Positions 4,224 through 19,413 of a DNA stretch of 19,413 nucleotides are shown one piece after another (the stretch's first letter is position 1; every line of letters starts with the position of its first letter). The position numbers were made by a program, and so were the translations under genes. Location: positions 1-19,413 of IMG/VR virus record IMGVR_UViG_2703718769_000016. The stretch is one strand, 5' to 3'. The stretch is from a virus. Taxonomy: Duplodnaviria; Heunggongvirae; Uroviricota; Caudoviricetes. Below the pieces are notes generated by a model that was not told the DNA's origin, made no database searches, and saw only the letters and a list, made by a program, of their open reading frames with translations.

Positions 4224-4610
4224 TCAGTGGAAGGTTGCCTGGTTTGCTGTTTTGTGAGTTGTTTTTCCCTTTTCGTGCTGGCATTCAGGGCAGTCGCACT
4301 CAGAATTTTCTCTTGCAAACTCAAGAGCCTGCGCCAGTGTATGGATTTGTTGTGCTCCAATGTTGCTTCTGACGACTTCACATGCAGCATGAATATATGG
4401 GCTTGGTGCTTTGCCATTTAACCCACATGAAACCAAACGACTGTCTTTATATTCGTTATTTCCAACTTCTGTAAGCACTGAAAAAGAAAATACAAAGTCG
4501 ATTTTGTATTCTTTGCATATTTTACTGATGCGTTCTGCAATTTCTTTGAGTTCATTTATTGCATCAGGACTGGTTTCGGAAAATATTTCATTTTGCTCAA
4601 GTTCTTTCAT
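4224..4610 (-). CDS. Hypothetical protein (AT-rich accessory gene in the early-left operon)
   Basis: 128-aa ORF, markedly AT-rich (K/E/I/N-rich), C-terminal CDCPEC motif; same strand and spacing as the neighbouring early genes. Confidence 0.5.
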   Translation of the reverse strand: MKELEQNEIFSETSPDAINELKEIAERISKICKEYKIDFVFSFSVLTEVGNNEYKDSRLVSCGLNGKAPSPYIHAACEVVRSNIGAQQIHTLAQALEFARENSECDCPECQHEKGKTTHKTANQATFH

Positions 4611-4684
4611 TTTTCAATTTCCGTTATTGATAACTAATGTAAATTACTGTTTGGTGCATATATTCGAGAGTATTTTATTACTCA

Positions 4685-4906
4685 TTACCATGATTCAGCT
4701 TTTACCGGCAAACCATCACGTCCCAGGAAAACTTTAATCATGCAGTCGGTAATGCATGTTTTTGTCGTGAAGTTACGAATATAGAGTTTTCTCTTTTCAA
4801 TATTGTTTGCTGAAGCGATATATGTCCGACCTTCATGAAGAACATAATCGCCAGGCGTCACGCACTGACGTGGTATTTCATCAGTTCCGAAGTGATGAGC
4901 AATCAT
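4685..4906 (-). CDS. kilR: KilR-like host-killing / cell-division inhibitor protein (73 aa)
   Basis: 73-aa product [35 protein letters not shown]... recognised from memory as Rac prophage KilR-like; SD GGAGAT 6 nt upstream of ATG at 4906; ORF track's longer start (4924) overlaps the SD. Confidence 0.55.
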
Positions 4907-5486
4907 AATTATCTCCATTTTCACAAATGAACTTTGTTGATGCAGTGCCTGGTGCCTCTAGGTGACGTTAACCAGTTAACAATTAACGCCGGAATACATA
5001 AGAGGATACTTACGCCAGTAAAAGACCGCTTTACTGATTTAACTGTTCCGCGTGCGCTTAGCCGCATTCACCGCATCACAAAATTCACTTTAAAAAGGGC
5101 GGCAGAGCAGTCACGGAGTAAAACTGATACCGCCAAACGTCACCAGAAAATTGATAACAGAGGGCGTTGCAGCGGGGTTGTCACTTAAGCGTATGGTCAA
5201 CCTTACAACCCGGTGTCCTCAACGGGGAAGAAATAACCCCGCCATACTTACCGCCGCGCCATTTCGCGGATTGCCACAACCGGAAGCACACGGTCGAAGA
5301 AATCTAACGACAAGCCTTCTAAGGAAAAGACGCCTTCGCCGTGTGCTTTCGTGTTGTGCCCTGACTTTTCAGGGAAATATCCTTTCAGTAAACTGTCAGT
5401 GCCGGATGCTCACCCGTGTCCGGTGCACGTTCTCCCCCTCACCAGTGGATAACTCCAAAACTACTGACAACCCCAGGAGGGTGAAT

Positions 5487-6370: not shown

Positions 6371-7015
6371 CTAGAGGCTGAACTGAACACCTTTTGCTAC
6401 AGCAACGATGTTACATTCCGGTGTAAGTAAGGATGATTGATAGCGTGGGTTAAGGGGGGCTAAGTACACGAGCTTTCCATCAATAACTAATTTTTTTATA
6501 GTCATGGATGGTTCGTTTGTGAGTGGATCTGGGACTATTACTGCGACGATGCTACCATTTTTATATTTTTCGCCAGGCCTCATGATCACTGTGGCTCCAA
6601 CTGGAATGCTTGGGGATCCTGATGGATTGTGCATAGTATCATCAGGCATTGAAACGGCAAAATCTCCCTCCTTGACATCAAAGAATGTGGTGATCCTGTC
6701 GACATTTCCCATAGTTTTCTCTCCTTTTAATATTAGGAAAGAAATCGCTTCTCCCCAAGAAAGGTATGGGATTTGGGTACCTGGATTTTTCTGCACAAGG
6801 GATGATTCAGGTGATGATACTCCATACAGGAGATAGGACTCAGTAGTGCCTAGTGCTAGGGCTAATTTACTAAGAGCTTTGCTACCTGGTTCGTTTAGAT
6901 CTTTCTCCCAGTATCCTATTGTTACCCCAGTTACGCCAGAAAGCTTGCCAAGTTCAACTTGGGTCAGACCTTTGTCTTTTCTGAGTTTCTTAAGCCTAAT
7001 GCCAAGGCTTTCCAT
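6371..7015 (-). CDS. CI-like prophage repressor (N-terminal HTH_XRE, C-terminal S24 LexA-like peptidase domain)
   Basis: N-terminal LTQVELGKLSGVTGVTIGYWEKD helix-turn-helix; C-terminal domain with S24-type fold features; SD GGGAGA upstream of ATG at 7015; divergent from a Cro-like gene. Confidence 0.85.
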   Translation of the reverse strand: MESLGIRLKKLRKDKGLTQVELGKLSGVTGVTIGYWEKDLNEPGSKALSKLALALGTTESYLLYGVSSPESSLVQKNPGTQIPYLSWGEAISFLILKGEKTMGNVDRITTFFDVKEGDFAVSMPDDTMHNPSGSPSIPVGATVIMRPGEKYKNGSIVAVIVPDPLTNEPSMTIKKLVIDGKLVYLAPLNPRYQSSLLTPECNIVAVAKGVQFSL

Positions 7016-7114: not shown

Positions 7115-7342
7115 ATGCGAGTTGATGAACTTGTCCAGTTTTTTGGTTCTGTCCAAAGAGTCGCTGATTTTTATGGGGTAACCCGAGAAGCTATATACAT
7201 GTGGCGTAAGCGTCCCGGCGAAATAGTTCCCAAGGGGAGGGCTGCTGAAGCAGTTGCATACTCCAAGGGAAAATTATCGTTGAACCCAGAACTTTACAAA
7301 AAGAAGGATAACACCTCGAACGAAAGGAAAAATGATTCATGA
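7115..7342 (+). CDS. Cro-like HTH regulator (YdaS family)
   Basis: 75-aa protein with HTH (FGSVQRVADFYGVTREAIYMWRKR); divergently transcribed from the CI-like repressor; stop overlaps the next gene's ATG (ATGA). Confidence 0.7.
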   Translation: MRVDELVQFFGSVQRVADFYGVTREAIYMWRKRPGEIVPKGRAAEAVAYSKGKLSLNPELYKKKDNTSNERKNDS

Positions 7343-7776
7343 AAATCAAACATGAGCACATCCGCATGGCGATGAATGCGTGGCTGCTTTATCCGAGGGT
7401 AGGGCGCAAAAAAATCGCTGATGATATAGCGACAGCATATTTTGAGCTTGAAATGACTTATCCACCAATGCATGACACCTCTACGACAGAGGGTATTGGA
7501 TTGAACATACAAAATATTTTTCGCTGGCTTGAAAAGGATACGCCTGATGCTGTTGAAAAAATTCAGGCACTAATTCCGGCTATCCTGACTGTTCTTCCGC
7601 GTGAACTGCGTTATCACCTCAGTATTTTTGACACTGTTGAGCGCCGTGCATTACTGGCGGCGCAGGAAGCGTTAAGTACGGCAATTGATGCACATGATGA
7701 TGCAGTCCAGGCCGTTTACCGGAAAGCGTATTTCAGCGACGGCGGGTCATCCGGCGAGTCTGTTGTGGTGCATTGA
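7339..7776 (+). CDS. YdaT-like (CII-analogue) early regulatory protein
   Basis: 145-aa ORF translationally coupled to the cro-like gene; family assignment by position and recalled similarity only. Confidence 0.5.
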   Translation: MKIKHEHIRMAMNAWLLYPRVGRKKIADDIATAYFELEMTYPPMHDTSTTEGIGLNIQNIFRWLEKDTPDAVEKIQALIPAILTVLPRELRYHLSIFDTVERRALLAAQEALSTAIDAHDDAVQAVYRKAYFSDGGSSGESVVVH

Positions 7777-11909: not shown

Positions 11910-12100
11910 AAAACCGTAAAGCAAAAATTCTGTTAGCTCGCAGAAACGGTGTTGGTGTCTGGCGGTGGGTGAGGATTAGTAACAGACGGGTGAGGTTGAC
12001 GGGGTGTTGCGGTGTTATGGGGCACAGTTGTTGCAAAAAGCCCAGCGCGGCGCAAAACCGCTGGAAAAACCACTGTTATCTGCGCACTAAAGGAGAGTGA
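11906..12100 (+). CDS. Questionable small ORF (64 aa) over a G/T-rich repeat region
   Basis: SD AGGAGAG before ATG 11906 and exact stop-start abutment with neighbours, but W/R/C-rich translation and GGGTGAGG repeats suggest it may be non-coding. Confidence 0.2.
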   Translation: MKNRKAKILLARRNGVGVWRWVRISNRRVRLTGCCGVMGHSCCKKPSAAQNRWKNHCYLRTKGE

Positions 12101-12101
12101 G

Positions 12102-12617
12102 ATGGCGTTAACACACCGCGAACTCTGTCAGATTGCGTACAAGTTCCTTAAGCGCAACGGGTTCAAGGTTTGCTTTCATGACCGCTTTATAGCTGTAACC
12201 AGTACCGGAGAACAGCCAGATGCTATGGGATTCAGAAATTCAGCATCATGCCTGATAGAGGCGAAGTGTTCTCGTGCTGACTTGTTGGCAGATAGAAAAA
12301 AGCGTTTCCGTAAAAATCCCTCTCTTGGCATGGGCGACTGGAGATTCTTTATTAGTGAGCCGGGAATTATTTCAATTGAGGATTTACCACCTGGCTGGGG
12401 ATTACTTCACGTTGTTAACGGAAGAGTACGGAAAGTACATGGGTGGCCCAAGGGTAATTGCTGTTGGGGTAATCCTGACGATAAGCCATTTACTGGAAAT
12501 AAGCAGGTTGAATGCGATTACATGTTGTCTGCATTAAGGCGCATGGAGTTGAGAGGGCACCTTAATGAAATATATGACGGTGTAATTGTTAATAAGAAAG
12601 AAGGAAACGCGGCATGA
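12102..12617 (+). CDS. Putative PD-(D/E)XK-fold nuclease-like protein (MmcB-like)
   Basis: SD AAAGGAGAG before ATG 12102; motif pattern D...(IEAK) consistent with a PD-(D/E)XK core (PDAMGF...[12 protein letters not shown]); 171 aa. Confidence 0.45.
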
Positions 12618-12958
12618 CGACTTTTACCAGAGAGCAGTTAATAGCTCACGCAGAGGAGACTATTGAAGCACAGAGACTGTGCATACCGGGCACAATCGAC
12701 AATGACATCATCCGCACATATAAGATGGATATTGCTGTTCTGGAAATCGCACTGGCATCGCTGGCAGCAGAGCCAGCCGGTAAATTGCATGAATACAAAC
12801 CAGTGGGACATCAGCGTCTGGTCGACGAGTTAACCATGCTGGTAAAGCAGTTAACCTGGCAACTGAGGAAAACGAAGCCGGACTGTAAATTGCCGGGTAA
12901 GGCGATGGACTACCTGAAGCGAAACGGACTGATAAGTGCAGAGGATGTTTTACGATGA
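12614..12958 (+). CDS. Hypothetical prophage protein (114 aa)
   Basis: ATG overlaps the upstream stop (ATGA); helical composition. Confidence 0.55.
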
Positions 12959-13038: not shown

Positions 13039-13149
13039 AAACGATTTGCGGGGAAAGGATAGTTAAGTAGAATTGCTGCGGGTGCTTGAGGCTATCTGTC
13101 TCAGGCATGAACACCAAAAGGCAGATAGAGAAAAGCCCCAGTTAACATT

Positions 13150-13215
13150 ACGCGTCCGGCAAGACGCTTAACATTAATCTGAGGCCATATCTATGCTCTA
13201 CACACGTAGGTTAGC
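13150..13215 (-). ncRNA. Predicted Sok-like antisense RNA of the hok locus (approximate position)
   Basis: Inferred from hok-family organisation; candidate minus-strand promoter (TTGCCT then 17 nt then TAACCT) would place a transcript antisense to the upstream in-frame ATG and SD at 13181-13195. Confidence 0.25.
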
Positions 13216-13249
13216 CTCTTACGTGCCGAAAGGCAAGGAGAAGCAGGCT

Positions 13250-13405
13250 ATGAAGCAGCAAAAGGCGATGCTAATCGCCCTGATCGTCATCTGTTTAACC
13301 GTCATTGTGACGGCACTGGTAACGAGGAAAGACCTCTGCGAGGTACGAATCCGAACCGGCCAGACGGAGGTCGCTGTCTTCACAGTCTACGAACCTGAGG
13401 AGTAA
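13250..13405 (+). CDS. hok: Hok/Gef-family type I toxin (51 aa membrane peptide)
   Basis: MKQQKAMLIALIVICLTVIVTALVTRKDLCEVRIRTGQTEVAVFTVYEPEE: hydrophobic TM helix plus conserved RKxLCE...EVA motif of the Hok family; SD AAGGAG; an in-frame upstream ATG at 13193 with its own SD (mok-like leader); structured 3' region with fold-back hairpin and terminator. Confidence 0.8.
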   Translation: MKQQKAMLIALIVICLTVIVTALVTRKDLCEVRIRTGQTEVAVFTVYEPEE

Positions 13406-13475
13406 GAGACCAGGCGGGGGAGAAATCTCCCGCCACCTCTGATGTGTCAGGCATCCTCAACGCACCCGCACTTAA

Positions 13476-13495
13476 CCCGCTTCGGCGGGTTTTTG
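13476..13495 (+). terminator. Rho-independent terminator of the hok transcript
   Basis: CCCGC-TTCG-GCGGG followed by TTTTT; preceded by hairpin GGCGGGGGAGA-AAT-CTCCCGCC at about 13414-13434. Confidence 0.6.
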
Positions 13496-13506
13496 CATTA
13501 GTCTGG

Positions 13507-13545
13507 TTGACAAAAACAGGAAAATGCGAAAATATAAGGTTTACG
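13507..13545 (+). promoter_or_regulatory. Candidate sigma70 promoter for the two-gene insert
   Basis: Perfect -35 TTGACA at 13507-13512; A/T-rich -10 candidates (AAATAT / TATAAG) 17-20 nt downstream; lies between the hok terminator and the 13571 ATG. Confidence 0.35.
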
Positions 13546-13570
13546 AATTCTAAAAAAAGCGAAACTTGAA

Positions 13571-14221
13571 ATGAATGAAAATCAGTTAGCTCCTTGTTGG
13601 GAATTTCAACCTTATCTTGCTGAAAGCAATGTTCGCCAGTTGTTGGCGGAGATCGCTAACGTACTTGAGCAGTTGTACTATCATAAGCACGTATTAGACA
13701 GCAACTGGTCTGAAGGTGTAAGGGCTTATGATTGGGTCAGAAACCATCTTATTCAAAATGAAGGCGCAATTCCTGGTCTTAAGATGATTTCCAAGGGGTT
13801 GGACTATGTAGTTGCTTTAAATAAAGTTCCGCTACAATTTACCAAAGATTGCATTAATAACCCCAAAAAGAAACATCGCCTGCGTCGAAATAAAGTAGAG
13901 CATGAGCAGCTTTCATTGTTTGGTGATGTTGAGGCTGAGCAAGATATTACATGGCGAGTCATAGCGGAGCCATTTTTATCCGAAGAGGGAGATGGTGAAT
14001 TAGAGTCCACACTGCCTCGTTGGGAGGTGGCTCTTGTTGGGTTTAATATCTATGGTGCTCAGATTAGTATGGTTTCTCATCAATCTACAGCATCAATGCC
14101 ACTTATGCCCCTTGACGGTAACACACTCCCTGGCGAAGCGGAGATTAATAAGGTGTCTCTTCGTCGGCGTACGAAGGATAAAATTTTGGATGTGAGCAGT
14201 AATGGAACATCAGGTGAATAA
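13571..14221 (+). CDS. Hypothetical 216-aa protein, candidate toxin/effector partner of the HTH-M78 peptidase
   Basis: Long ORF in a low-GC insert; no motif recognised by eye; 3' end overlaps the start of the downstream HTH/peptidase gene by 20 nt (operon). Confidence 0.6.
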   Translation: MNENQLAPCWEFQPYLAESNVRQLLAEIANVLEQLYYHKHVLDSNWSEGVRAYDWVRNHLIQNEGAIPGLKMISKGLDYVVALNKVPLQFTKDCINNPKKKHRLRRNKVEHEQLSLFGDVEAEQDITWRVIAEPFLSEEGDGELESTLPRWEVALVGFNIYGAQISMVSHQSTASMPLMPLDGNTLPGEAEINKVSLRRRTKDKILDVSSNGTSGE

Positions 14222-15305
14222 CTTCACTGAGTATCGAGGCGATAAGCTCAAACTAGCAAGAATGGCTATTGGGCTTTCATGTGAAGAGTTGGCCGAAAAA
14301 ATTGGCAAAACAAAACAATTCGTTAGCAAATTGGAGAAGGGATTTAGGCCATCAGAGCAATGCCTGGAGTTAATAGCCTCAGCTCTTATGATTAAGCCCG
14401 ATTTTCTATTTACTGAGCGAAAATATGCTCTGGAAAGCGATGTTTGCCATTTTCGGAGTAAGAAGTCCAGGACTCAAACGCTGACTAATAGTGTCTTGGC
14501 TAGGGCTGAGATTCTTAATATTATAATTTCTGCTGTTGAAGGTGAAATCGAATTCCCTGATGTCAACATACCAGAGCACCCAGGAACTGAATTACTTACC
14601 CCGAATGATATTGAGCGAGTGGCAGAAGATTGTCGCCGTGCATGGAATCTAGGTCTTGGCCCTATATCATCAATGGTGAAATTGGCGGAGAGTTTGGGGG
14701 TAATCGTTGCGCATGTTACGGGAGTCGATGATCGTGTTGATGCATTCACTGTTCACAATAACAGGCCTGTTATTATCAGGAACAATGTAAAAAAAAGCAT
14801 ATGTAGATTTCGCTCTGATTTAGGTCATGAGTTAGGGCATTTAGTAATGCATGAGGGCATAACTACTGGTGATAAACTTACGGAATCACAAGCTGATCAC
14901 TTTTCTAGCGCCTTATTGGTTCCTAGGCTATCTTTCATTAAAGAATTTCCACGAATACGAGGTAAGCAATTCGATTGGAGTGCTCTGGTTGAATTTAAGC
15001 TTAGATGGAAAATTAGCCTTAAAATGTGTATTTATCGAGCCAGTGCATTAGGACTATTGACCCAGGAACAGGCAAGAACTGGCTATATGCATCTTAATTC
15101 TAGAGGGTACACGAGAGTTGAACCAGGTGATGAACTTTTGCGCCACGAAGAACCAAGTATGCTGTCCGAAGCGATTGACATGCTGGATGATGCAACTTGG
15201 TTAAGAATTCTTATGAAAACTGGCTTGAGTCAAGATTTAATTCGTGAGTTGTTCTCCATCAATCGACCTATTACAAATCCAAGAAATATTTTTCAGATTG
15301 TTTGA
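14202..15305 (+). CDS. Xre-family HTH fused to ImmA/IrrE-type (M78, COG2856) zinc metallopeptidase
   Basis: N-terminal HTH (LKLARMAIGLSCEELAEKIGKTKQFVSKLEKG); HEXXH zinc-binding motif HELGHLVMHE about 140 residues later; 367 aa, typical for HTH-COG2856 fusions. Confidence 0.85.
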   Translation: MEHQVNNFTEYRGDKLKLARMAIGLSCEELAEKIGKTKQFVSKLEKGFRPSEQCLELIASALMIKPDFLFTERKYALESDVCHFRSKKSRTQTLTNSVLARAEILNIIISAVEGEIEFPDVNIPEHPGTELLTPNDIERVAEDCRRAWNLGLGPISSMVKLAESLGVIVAHVTGVDDRVDAFTVHNNRPVIIRNNVKKSICRFRSDLGHELGHLVMHEGITTGDKLTESQADHFSSALLVPRLSFIKEFPRIRGKQFDWSALVEFKLRWKISLKMCIYRASALGLLTQEQARTGYMHLNSRGYTRVEPGDELLRHEEPSMLSEAIDMLDDATWLRILMKTGLSQDLIRELFSINRPITNPRNIFQIV

Positions 15306-15310
15306 GCATA

Positions 15311-15335
15311 CCCGCTACGGCGGGTTTTGTTTTTT
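15311..15335 (+). terminator. Rho-independent terminator after the HTH-M78 gene
   Basis: CCCGC-TAC-GGCGGG followed by TTTTGTTTTTT, 6 nt after the stop; near-identical core to the hok terminator. Confidence 0.65.
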
Positions 15336-15407
15336 CCGGGCTTTTTGGTTTACAATCCGCACGCCAGCCTGAACAACTGGCACCTGCTGCGCCAGCAGAG
15401 AAAAACG

Positions 15408-18354: not shown

Positions 18355-19413
18355 ATGCTTAATACTGTAAAAATATCCAGTTGTGAGTTAATCAACGCCG
18401 ACTGCCTGGAATTTATCCGGTCGTTACCCGAAAATTCTGTTGACCTGATAGTCACGGACCCGCCGTACTTTAAAGTGAAGCCTGAGGGCTGGGATAACCA
18501 GTGGAAGGGCGACGATGATTACCTGAAGTGGCTGGACCAGTGTCTTGCGCAGTTCTGGCGGGTGCTGAAACCTGCCGGAAGTCTTTACCTGTTCTGTGGC
18601 CATCGCCTGGCATCTGATATCGAAATCATGATGCGTGAACGCTTCAGTGTGCTGAACCATATTATCTGGGCGAAGCCGTCCGGACGCTGGAACGGGTGCA
18701 ACAAGGAAAGCCTGAGGGCGTATTTCCCCGCCACAGAGCGCATTCTGTTCGCGGAACATTATCAGGGGCCGTATCGCCCGAAAGATGCCGGGTATGAGGC
18801 GAAGGGCAGGGCACTGAAACAGCATGTGATGGCCCCGCTGATTGCTTACTTTCGTGATGCGCGCGCTACCCTGGGGATAACGGCAAAACAGATTGTGGAT
18901 GCCACAGGAAAGAAAAACATGGTGTCGCACTGGTTCAGTGCCAGCCAGTGGCAGTTACCGAACGAGGATGATTACAGAAAACTTCAGGTGCTGTTTGCCC
19001 GGGTGGCAGAAGAGAAACATCAGCGGGGTGAACTGGAAAAGCCACATCACCAACTGGTCAGCACATACAGTGAGCTGAACCGGCAGTATGCCAGCCTGCT
19101 GGAAGAGTACAAATCACTGCGGCGTTATTTTTCCGTATCGGCAGCCGTTCCTTATACGGATGTCTGGACGCACAAGCCTGTGCAGTATTATCCGGGCAAA
19201 CATCCCTGTGAAAAACCGGCAGATATGTTGCGGCAAATGATTACCGCCAGCAGTCGTCCGGGTGACCTGGTTGCAGATTTCTTCATGGGGTCCGGTTCGA
19301 CAGTCAAAGCAGCGATGGCGCTGGGGCGTCGTGCAATTGGTGTCGAGCTGGAGGCTGAACGTTTTGAGCAGACCGCAATGGATGTACAGAATTTAATCAG
19401 AAAGAGAGAGTGA
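18355..19413 (+). CDS. DNA methyltransferase, beta-class amino-MTase (N6-adenine or N4-cytosine), apparently orphan within this window
   Basis: Motif IV TDPPYF near the N-terminus (residues about 34-39) and motif I DFFMGSGST near the C-terminus give the beta-group motif order; 352 aa; ORF ends exactly at the window edge. Confidence 0.85.
   Translation: MLNTVKISSCELINADCLEFIRSLPENSVDLIVTDPPYFKVKPEGWDNQWKGDDDYLKWLDQCLAQFWRVLKPAGSLYLFCGHRLASDIEIMMRERFSVLNHIIWAKPSGRWNGCNKESLRAYFPATERILFAEHYQGPYRPKDAGYEAKGRALKQHVMAPLIAYFRDARATLGITAKQIVDATGKKNMVSHWFSASQWQLPNEDDYRKLQVLFARVAEEKHQRGELEKPHHQLVSTYSELNRQYASLLEEYKSLRRYFSVSAAVPYTDVWTHKPVQYYPGKHPCEKPADMLRQMITASSRPGDLVADFFMGSGSTVKAAMALGRRAIGVELEAERFEQTAMDVQNLIRKRE

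Follow-up and report, generated by a model that had tools for sequence, protein, structure and literature searches.

A probable RosmerTA-family toxin-antitoxin cassette carried 3' of hokD in a Qin/lambda-like Escherichia coli prophage

The locus described here is a two-gene cassette of 1.8 kb within the window, the window being the entire 19,413-nucleotide stretch of DNA that was analysed. The two genes, rmrT and rmrA, lie on the plus strand, overlap by 20 nt and are found directly 3' of hokD (Table 1). The cassette is AT-rich, with a GC content of 0.411 compared to 0.48 in the left flank and 0.514 in the right flank, and GC3 is 0.37 and 0.35 in the two cassette genes versus 0.44-0.55 in their neighbors. 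The first-pass annotation had described two overlapping genes in an AT-richer block that sits beside hok and ends in a strong terminator. Each of these observations was confirmed: the ORFs lie exactly where they had been placed, the block differs in composition from both flanks, Pfam HOK_GEF, Rfam sok and RefSeq hokD agree on the identity of the upstream gene, and a hairpin followed by a T-run was called from 15310-15325 onwards, shortly after rmrA.

Table 1. Features of the cassette and its 5' flank, in window coordinates.
Feature	Coordinates	Strand	Description
sok/hok regulatory RNA region (flank)	13080..13255	+	Rfam RF01794 sok, 117 bits versus a gathering score of 59
hokD (flank)	13250..13405	+	Pfam HOK_GEF, E 6.2e-22; RefSeq hokD at the equivalent position in locus L001
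hokD intrinsic terminator (flank)	13474..13495	+	terminator scan
Conserved promoter/leader	13505..13570	+	-35, putative -10, two imperfect tandem units
rmrT	13571..14221	+	putative toxin, 216 aa, PADLOC type PDLC03929
rmrA	14202..15305	+	predicted antitoxin, 367 aa: Xre-type HTH, M78 zinc-metallopeptidase and C-terminal domain
Cassette terminator	15310..15335	+	ACCCGCTACGGCGGGT then T-run; hairpin called by terminator scan

The cassette starts right after the T-run of the hokD terminator, a boundary that is backed by phage Evi, in which the site is empty, and by comparison of the junctions. Within the flank, a 70-aa ORF starting at 13193 represents a mok-like frame overlapping hokD. The cassette had been assigned to the position at which K-12 Qin carries relBE, and this assignment was wrong. 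The gene order in K-12 Qin is relB-relE-hokD-rem-hyp-ydfU, so relBE lies upstream, on the opposite side of hokD from the cassette-equivalent site, which holds rem. Elsewhere the equivalent site is either empty or occupied by rem. In lambdoid prophages the gap just 3' of the hokD terminator is a cargo site with three states: empty, rem or RosmerTA.

The terminator of the cassette matches that of hokD, 1,835 bp upstream, at 18 of 19 nt. We considered whether this repeat represents a target-site-like duplication and rejected the idea, since a terminator of the same ACCCGC-N4-GCGGGT type also ends the cassette in genomes that lack hok, namely Enterobacter (L014) and a second locus (L017). This type is also common among lambdoid prophages, and we favor the view that the terminator belongs to the cassette itself. 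The repeat possibly provides a short stretch of homology for recombination.

Of 5,426 complete E. coli genomes, 237 (~4%) carry the cassette, and the annotation of the listed carriers shows the pair intact. L003, L004, L006-L008 and L014-L017 all retain the pairing of toxin and antitoxin, even where toxin identity falls to ~27%. At every locus with enough flanking DNA (L004, L006/L007, L008 and L014-L017) the toxin gene is followed by a gene of ~342-376 aa encoding HTH_3 and Peptidase_M78. L007 is an exception in that its 342-aa antitoxin has no HTH match on record and its gene does not overlap the toxin gene, as the genes do at the other loci. In other genera the cassette has Q on one side and the holin gene on the other, or adjoins a NACHT gene (L017), and none of the deposited phage genomes carries it at the DNA or protein level. 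The proposal that the block is a self-contained insert, and not part of the prophage core, is supported by its occurrence in a small fraction of genomes, by a GC content below that of its surroundings and by the equivalent site being empty or filled by rem elsewhere. Judged from these sequence comparisons, the cassette is optional cargo that is mobile as a unit.

The 68 nt immediately 5' of rmrT are 82-90% identical across genera, compared to 62-81% for the coding DNA and 35-45% for DNA further upstream. Such conservation, above that of the genes themselves, suggests that the region contains a promoter plus operator. Positions 13507-13512 hold a -35 hexamer, TTGACA, which does not vary in the cassettes of five other sources. 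The best -10 at a 17-nt spacing is a weak AAATAT (13530-13535), and the distant homologous cassette in L006 has GATAAT at the same spacing from its -35. The claim that the cassette has its own TTGACA promoter stands as far as the hexamer is concerned, but is weakened by the poor -10 and by a consensus promoter scan that called no promoter at the cassette 5' site. The leader also contains two imperfect tandem units of ~32 nt, each with a GGTTKAC and a GCGAAA element, which are candidate operator sites for RmrA. No RNA structure was detected in the leader (z = +0.6), and the Rfam search returned no match inside the cassette.

The 367-aa protein had been recognized as an Xre-HTH/M78 peptidase, and Pfam identifies HTH_3 at residues 16-69 (domain ~13-70) and Peptidase_M78 at residues 176-281 (domain ~160-285). 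The protein matches the PADLOC RmrA model PDLC03943 over nearly its full length (E 8e-107). It is also homologous along its full length to the experimentally verified RmrA of E. coli OLC-716, with which it shares 29% identity across 300 aa (E 5e-35); the OLC-716 sequence was taken from Table S2 of Millman et al. The zinc-site residues H209, E210, H213 and E228, including an HELGH motif at 209-213, are invariant in 8 of 8 antitoxins, among them the verified one. The NCBIfam model 'spr1629 family repressor/antitoxin' also matches RmrA over its full length, with a score of 152 bits against a cut-off of 335; thus RmrA is not an equivalog of the spr1629 family.

The same domains could be taken to indicate an ImmA/IrrE-type, stress-sensing regulator that cleaves a repressor, possibly its own HTH, in order to control prophage or neighboring genes, in which case the 216-aa protein would be regulated cargo or an accessory rather than a toxin. 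Such a regulator is consistent with the Peptidase_M78 domain (IrrE N-terminal-like) and the HTH, with PADLOC matches of the M78 domain to capP (1.9e-14) and of the HTH to capH (8.5e-6), and with the ImmA/ImmR precedent (PMC10440598). However, the protein matches RmrA models along its full length, and far more strongly than it matches capP, where the similarity is confined to the domain. Furthermore, the prophage already encodes a LexA-like self-cleaving CI repressor (HTH_3 and Peptidase_S24, 6371-7015), and the pair resides in the nin region ~6.5 kb away, far from the lysogeny module, and moves as a unit between unrelated prophage positions. ImmA/ImmR (ICEBs1), IrrE/DdrO (Deinococcus) and CapP/CapH (CBASS) likewise combine an M78 (COG2856) metallopeptidase with an Xre-type HTH. 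There, the protease and the repressor with the HTH are two proteins that control a downstream regulon, whereas here the two are fused and the sole conserved partner is the toxin-like 216-aa protein. A CapH/CapP module would be expected to consist of separate, divergent capH and capP genes upstream of a CBASS operon, and no CBASS genes were found within the window. The anti-repressor alternative raised in the first-pass annotation is disfavored, and we consider a regulator of this kind very unlikely.

The 216-aa protein matches the PADLOC RmrT model PDLC03929 (E 3.6e-24), with residues 7-204 aligned to positions 5-190 of the 198-position profile, and this was the sole RmrT model matched by the aligned toxin-family members (56 of 56). 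The protein had been said to lack any recognizable motif and to be perhaps an undescribed effector. The Pfam search was indeed empty, and NCBIfam gave nothing either; the suggestion of novelty holds as far as an assigned function or structure is concerned, but not for the family as such, which is already cataloged as an RmrT type. RmrT is acidic (pI 5.45) and soluble, without a transmembrane segment (maximum 19-residue hydrophobicity 0.98). Its predicted structure shows an α/β core spanning ~5-172 and a C-terminal tail, ~175-216, that is disordered, and D43, E110 and R129 are nearly invariant in the family alignment. Profile searches against PDB sequences returned nothing under E 0.3, and Foldseek against viral structures (BFVD) gave no significant match. 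The order of secondary-structure elements is compatible with a PD-(D/E)xK nuclease fold (αβββαβ core), but D78, where β2 begins, varies among family members, and no (D/E)xK motif is found in β3.

Homology to the verified OLC-716 RmrT was rejected: BLAST gave E > 6, and sequence-to-profile and profile-to-profile tests gave hhalign probabilities of 0.4% and 1.4%. Since no homology between the two toxins is detected, function is not transferable through toxin homology. This result does not exclude membership in RosmerTA, because diversity among RmrT toxins is established (PMC10440598).

One could go further and read the structural model as that of a new enzymatic effector, a soluble α/β protein with an active site formed by D43, E110 and R129 that would be gated by the RmrA peptidase acting on the conserved, disordered C-terminal tail. 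We regard this proposal as speculative and rather unlikely. Within it, the fold is possibly a divergent restriction-endonuclease-like one without the canonical PD-(D/E)xK motif. If the effector proposal were true, it would provide a new toxin activity as well as an account of how M78-peptidase antitoxins neutralize and release toxins, and RmrA would use the ultra-conserved 68-nt promoter/leader as its operator, which would give a way of approaching the trigger.

The ratios of dN to dS, 0.08-0.24 for rmrT and 0.02-0.04 for rmrA, indicate that purifying selection acts on both genes. This bears on whether the cassette could be a non-functional relic decaying within a defective prophage, as might be supposed given that Qin-type prophages are often defective and that many cluster members are represented in the databases by partial sequences. 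Strong purifying selection on two intact ORFs, invariant catalytic residues, a promoter conserved across genera and the intact annotated pairs in the listed E. coli carriers all argue against decay, which we judge to be extremely improbable.

Based on our results, we conclude that the block is probably a RosmerTA-family toxin-antitoxin/abortive-infection cassette, a 'moron' in the early-right (nin) region of a Qin/lambda-like E. coli prophage. A toxin-antitoxin-like or anti-phage module had been proposed, with RosmerTA named as a precedent and an HMM and PADLOC search as the suggested check, and the proposal is borne out by the PADLOC matches of both proteins. The locus has an M78 antitoxin with an HTH, an adjacent gene matched by an RmrT model, and a two-gene operon with conserved pairing; homology of the toxin to a verified RmrT was looked for and is absent. 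RosmerTA is an established defense family, and current PADLOC models label the locus automatically. RosmerTA confers anti-phage defense, and a ΔrmrA derivative was not transformable (10.1101/2022.05.11.491447). RmrA has been described as a protease-domain antitoxin partnered by diverse toxins (PMC10440598). In addition, rmrA was found to be essential, and clpX to be essential solely in RosmerTA-carrying strains (10.64898/2025.12.09.693261). The RosmerTA homologues of S. thermophilus had little effect on most of the phages tested (PMC12322248), so the RosmerTA label is no guarantee of phenotype.

In the proposed mechanism, rmrT would give rise to a soluble cytoplasmic toxin, and rmrA is probably translationally coupled to it through the gene overlap. 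RmrA, as an HTH-Xre/M78 zinc-metallopeptidase antitoxin, would hold RmrT inactive, and its HTH probably represses the cassette promoter at the GGTTKAC/GCGAAA repeats, which extend over both the -35 and the region where transcription starts. Upon infection by particular phages neutralization would fail, RmrT would arrest the cell, and the infection would abort, protecting the lysogen population and therefore the prophage. The toxicity of PDLC03929-type RmrT, its target and its trigger are inferred, as are autoregulation by RmrA and the substrate of its peptidase. Since this toxin has no homology to a verified RmrT and lacks the transmembrane region of the toxin from phage Kita, its toxicity and role in defense are extrapolated from its antitoxin partner and from how the genes are arranged. 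Our literature search found no paper testing a PDLC03929-type toxin, no paper on how HTH-M78 antitoxins neutralize diverse toxins or what the peptidase cleaves, and no explanation for the essentiality of Clp protease in RosmerTA-carrying strains. The locus offers a convenient entry to RosmerTA mechanism, as it is compact, occurs in ~4% of complete E. coli genomes and has an unusually conserved promoter region.

A related possibility is that the pair is a pure addiction module, that is, a true toxin-antitoxin pair that stabilizes the prophage via post-segregational killing, as hokD would, and has no part in phage defense. The cassette adjoins hokD, itself a maintenance-type toxin locus, and is carried by two E. 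coli plasmids. Essentiality of rmrA has been reported in other species (10.64898/2025.12.09.693261), and several RosmerTA homologues gave little or no defense (PMC12322248). Nevertheless, the two tested RosmerTA systems of OLC-716 and phage Kita do defend, and the cassette occupies classic moron/defense-cargo positions, including the one beside the NACHT gene. Addiction and defense are not mutually exclusive roles, and we consider addiction alone unlikely.

The verified founder, E. coli OLC-716 RosmerTA (Millman et al. 2022), encodes an RmrT of 239 aa and an RmrA of 370 aa in a toxin-first two-gene operon, and its antitoxin has the same HTH-Xre, M78 and C-terminal organization with the same HEXXH and Glu. 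It differs from the window pair in its toxin, as described above, and in its sub-models, PDLC03935/PDLC03949 compared to PDLC03929/PDLC03943. The RosmerTA system of Gordonia phage Kita (RmrT-D5/RmrA-D25; Ernits et al. 2023, PMC10440598) is similar in being phage-encoded and in having an ImmA-type protease antitoxin, and it provides narrow-spectrum defense (PMC10440598). The toxin of Kita depolarizes the membrane and is predicted to have transmembrane regions (PMC10440598), in contrast to the acidic, soluble toxin of the window. PD-λ-2 (Vassallo et al. 2022, PMC9519451) consists of three genes, and its HTH-peptidase component is itself toxic. Its first gene is HigB-like, whereas the window toxin has no similarity to HigB.

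Two further systems, S. pneumoniae spr1629/spr1630 and the E. coli E101 prophage module that renders clpP essential (Rousset et al. 2021 preprint), resemble the cassette in combining a prophage-borne toxin of unknown function with a downstream antitoxin. The E101 module is probably not the same system. Its suppressor mutation, T46S, fits the T46 of OLC-716-type toxins, while the window toxin has W46, indicating that the E101 toxin is probably of the other type.

The proteins encoded by the two cassette genes both match RosmerTA models, in agreement with the first-pass annotation, which had proposed a toxin-antitoxin-like or defence module of this type. In PADLOC-DB the 216-aa protein matched RmrT model PDLC03929 over nearly its full length (E 3.6e-24), while the best match of the 367-aa protein was RmrA model PDLC03943 (E 8e-107), followed by thirteen other RmrA models. 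The predicted Xre-HTH/M78 peptidase architecture was recovered with Pfam, which places HTH_3 at residues 16-69 and Peptidase_M78 (ImmA/IrrE) at 176-281 of the 367-aa protein, and the solved structures closest to its HTH are those of phage 434 repressor and SinR. H209, E210 and H213 (HELGH), E228 and several more positions are invariant when the protein is aligned with the verified RmrA of E. coli OLC-716 and six antitoxins paired with members of the PDLC03929-type toxin family. PHROGs assigned the two proteins to phrog_5786 (unknown function) and phrog_2439 (transcriptional regulator), respectively. CapH/CapP-type regulation, which would also involve an HTH and a protease, is not supported: the matches are at domain level only, a single protein combines HTH and protease, and the window contains no CBASS operon. 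By current computational criteria we assign the locus to RosmerTA with high confidence. The locus is already known, being recognised by current defence-system models and common in E. coli; its residual value lies in a toxin type without an assigned fold and in an unusually conserved putative promoter/operator region.

The RosmerTA system of E. coli OLC-716 was verified experimentally by Millman et al., and both protein sequences appear in their supplementary table (10.1101/2022.05.11.491447). Window RmrA is homologous to OLC-716 RmrA (29% identity over 300 residues, E 5e-35), whereas BLAST of window RmrT against OLC-716 RmrT returned nothing. Similarly, hhalign with a 56-sequence profile of the window toxin family gave a probability of 0.4% against the verified RmrT and of 1.4% against a 22-sequence profile of its family. 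The OLC-716 pair falls in other PADLOC sub-models, RmrT PDLC03935 and RmrA PDLC03949. Judged by these comparisons, the RosmerTA subtype in the window is a catalogued one, and its toxin has no detectable sequence relationship to the tested RmrT. The pairing of a homologous RmrA with such a toxin is in keeping with published work, in which RmrA, an antitoxin with a protease domain, partners diverse RmrT toxins (PMC10440598).

Features of the window (positions, strand and supporting evidence)
Feature	Position	Strand	Remarks
DicF antisense sRNA	5097-5148	-	Rfam RF00039, 76.7 bits
LexA-like CI repressor	6371-7015	-	HTH_3 + Peptidase_S24; immunity region
YdaT_toxin-family protein	7339-7776	+	immunity region; downstream of cro-side genes
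Overlapping unknown ORF pair	12012-12617, 12614-12958	+	phrog_9263/631, phrog_660; no match in Pfam or PADLOC
-35 element	13507-13512		TTGACA, perfect
-10 element	13530-13535		AAATAT, weak; 17-nt spacing
rmrT ORF	13571-14221	+	216 aa
rmrA ORF	14202-15305	+	367 aa
Cassette terminator	15310-15335		hairpin, then T-run, after rmrA stop codon; terminator scan
N6/N4 DNA methyltransferase gene	18355-19413	+	downstream of antiterminator Q; reaches window end

Several features of the block read from the sequence at the outset were confirmed. The two ORFs lie exactly where they had been placed and overlap by 20 nt, a terminator closes the cassette, and the block is richer in AT than the flanking DNA, with a GC of 0.411 (13494-15309) vs 0.48 in the left and 0.514 in the right flank, and a GC3 of 0.37 and 0.35 in its two genes vs 0.44-0.55 in genes nearby. 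The proposed promoter of its own stands as regards the -35 element, but the consensus promoter scan made no call at this site because the -10 element is weak.

The 68 nt upstream of rmrT (window 13505-13570) are 82-90% identical among E. coli, Enterobacter, Serratia, Limnobaculum and a further enterobacterial-type prophage (L017), whereas the coding DNA is 62-81% identical in the same comparisons and the DNA farther upstream is unrelated (35-45%). This region contains the invariant blocks GGTTGACAAAA, CGAAAATAT, GGTTTAC and AAAAAAGCGAAACTT, and consists of two imperfect tandem units of ~32 nt, each with GGTTKAC and GCGAAA, one overlapping the -35 and the other the expected transcription start. 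Even the distant cassette L006 keeps TTGAC, 17 nt, GATAAT and then GGTTTAC. No RNA structure was evident in the cassette leader (z = +0.6), nor did Rfam match anything inside the cassette. We infer a σ70 promoter with candidate operator sites for the RmrA HTH, and 13505-13570 is probably promoter plus RmrA operator.

The position next to hok was also borne out, since a Pfam HOK_GEF match, Rfam sok (13080-13255) and the RefSeq annotation all support hokD directly upstream. The cassette does not, however, occupy the relBE position of K-12 Qin as had been proposed: the K-12-type order is relB-relE-hokD-rem-hyp-ydfU, with relBE upstream of hokD, and the cassette lies in the downstream gap that holds rem in K-12. 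The wider notion of a hotspot next to hok is fair, as the region upstream is likewise variable: the window has the unknown ORF pair there, strain 14EC001 an α/β hydrolase, strain G1/2 QueH, phage Evi an acetyltransferase and K-12 relBE. The ORF pair therefore marks a second variable cargo site, flanking hokD on the opposite side.

Among 5,426 complete E. coli genomes, 237 carry the full block, annotated as hokD, hypothetical protein and HTH protein in all records listed, while hokD loci occur in 4,719 genomes at ~10,800 places. Nothing occupies the equivalent site in phage Evi and strain 21319; in K-12-type Qin, an O157 prophage and strain PBS4 it holds rem. The cassette begins where the T-run of the hokD terminator stops, and a second terminator, matching the first at 18/19 nt, lies at its end 1,835 bp downstream. 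We rejected this repeat as a target duplication; the same terminator type closes the cassette in Enterobacter and in L017, neither of which has hok there, and is thus the cassette's own. Junctions are identical in empty-type (window, L001) and rem-type (L003) backgrounds. In L003 (5064-5138), from E. coli G1/2-type prophages, a truncated rem remnant lies 3' of the cassette, with a gap to the next gene ~290 bp longer than in the window; the cassette therefore entered both backgrounds. Other genera carry the pair in the nin region without hok, between antiterminator Q and holin genes, or beside a NACHT/NB-ARC gene. Two E. coli plasmids carry the cassette, and it was not found in deposited phage genomes at the DNA or protein level. 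From these sequence comparisons, we conclude that the block is a mobile, optional cassette.

RmrA is unlikely to serve the prophage as an ImmA-like anti-repressor, since a LexA-like CI repressor of the prophage's own is encoded within a normal immunity region. The cassette lies ~6.5 kb from there, and its movement is independent of lysogeny modules.

Wherever enough flanking DNA was available (Limnobaculum, L006/L007, the metagenomic contig L008, Enterobacter, Serratia and another enterobacterial-type prophage), an HTH_3 + Peptidase_M78 gene of ~342-376 aa comes after the toxin-family gene. The 342-aa partner in L007 has no HTH match on record, and this locus is the only one without overlap with the toxin gene. 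Toxin identity to window RmrT is 61% in Limnobaculum, 27% in L006/L007 (same toxin) and ~23% in L008. Both genes are under purifying selection, with dN/dS of 0.08-0.24 for rmrT and 0.02-0.04 for rmrA; the toxin therefore evolves faster than the antitoxin. The kept pairing and purifying selection argue that the two genes form a functional unit. Some neighbourhoods are of separate interest. In L008 (150-2690) the distant cassette adjoins a Dcm-type DNA methylase, Vsr endonuclease and HNH protein, resembling a restriction-modification neighbourhood; in L017 (5049-6651) the cassette is directly followed by a large NACHT/NB-ARC protein (Avs-like candidate), resembling a small defence island.

The 216-aa protein had no match in Pfam or NCBIfam. 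It is not an undescribed effector insofar as its type is catalogued, but no fold could be assigned to it either by Foldseek against viral structures or by profile searches against PDB sequences. Exhaustive HMMER searching of 1.84 billion representative proteins yielded a small family of just 59 clusters (E ≤ 1e-3), almost all of ~200 aa, and PDLC03929 is the sole PADLOC model matched by 56/56 aligned members. D43, E110 and R129 are nearly invariant, and W46-x2-G-x-R-x-Y, VPxRF, PKK, QLSL and WR are also conserved. Window RmrT is acidic (pI 5.45) and lacks a transmembrane segment, in contrast to the membrane-depolarising RmrT of Gordonia phage Kita (PMC10440598). A usable AlphaFold2 model from the 56-sequence alignment (pLDDT 82, pTM 0.72), with which a first model from a shallower alignment agrees, predicts a helical hairpin at the N terminus, then a mixed α/β core, and finally a disordered tail of ~40 residues at the C terminus. 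The secondary-structure order fits a restriction-endonuclease-like core, but there is no conservation of the canonical D…(D/E)xK residues, and nuclease activity may be taken as a weak lead only.

The best-supported reading, which we consider likely as a whole, is a RosmerTA toxin-antitoxin/abortive-infection moron. RmrA would neutralise RmrT and probably autoregulate the operon; certain phages would break this neutralisation, leaving RmrT free to arrest the cell. For another RosmerTA member, defence was reported and a ΔrmrA mutant was not obtained (10.1101/2022.05.11.491447); in other members the antitoxin is essential, and RosmerTA toxins have been linked to ClpX/ClpP essentiality (10.64898/2025.12.09.693261). 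A pure addiction role, compatible with defence, seems rather improbable, though RosmerTA homologues from S. thermophilus worked poorly against most of the phages tested (PMC12322248).

Elsewhere, DicF confirms a Qin/dicB-type early-left region of the prophage, and the lowest GC of the window (0.335-0.375, 4401-5000) lies beside it. In the Limnobaculum prophage (L004), where the cassette lies between Q and a holin gene, an Acb2_Tad1_hairpin-family protein just after the lysis genes (7273-7509) is a candidate anti-CBASS/anti-Thoeris sponge. The N6/N4 methyltransferase of the window is an orphan prophage methylase.
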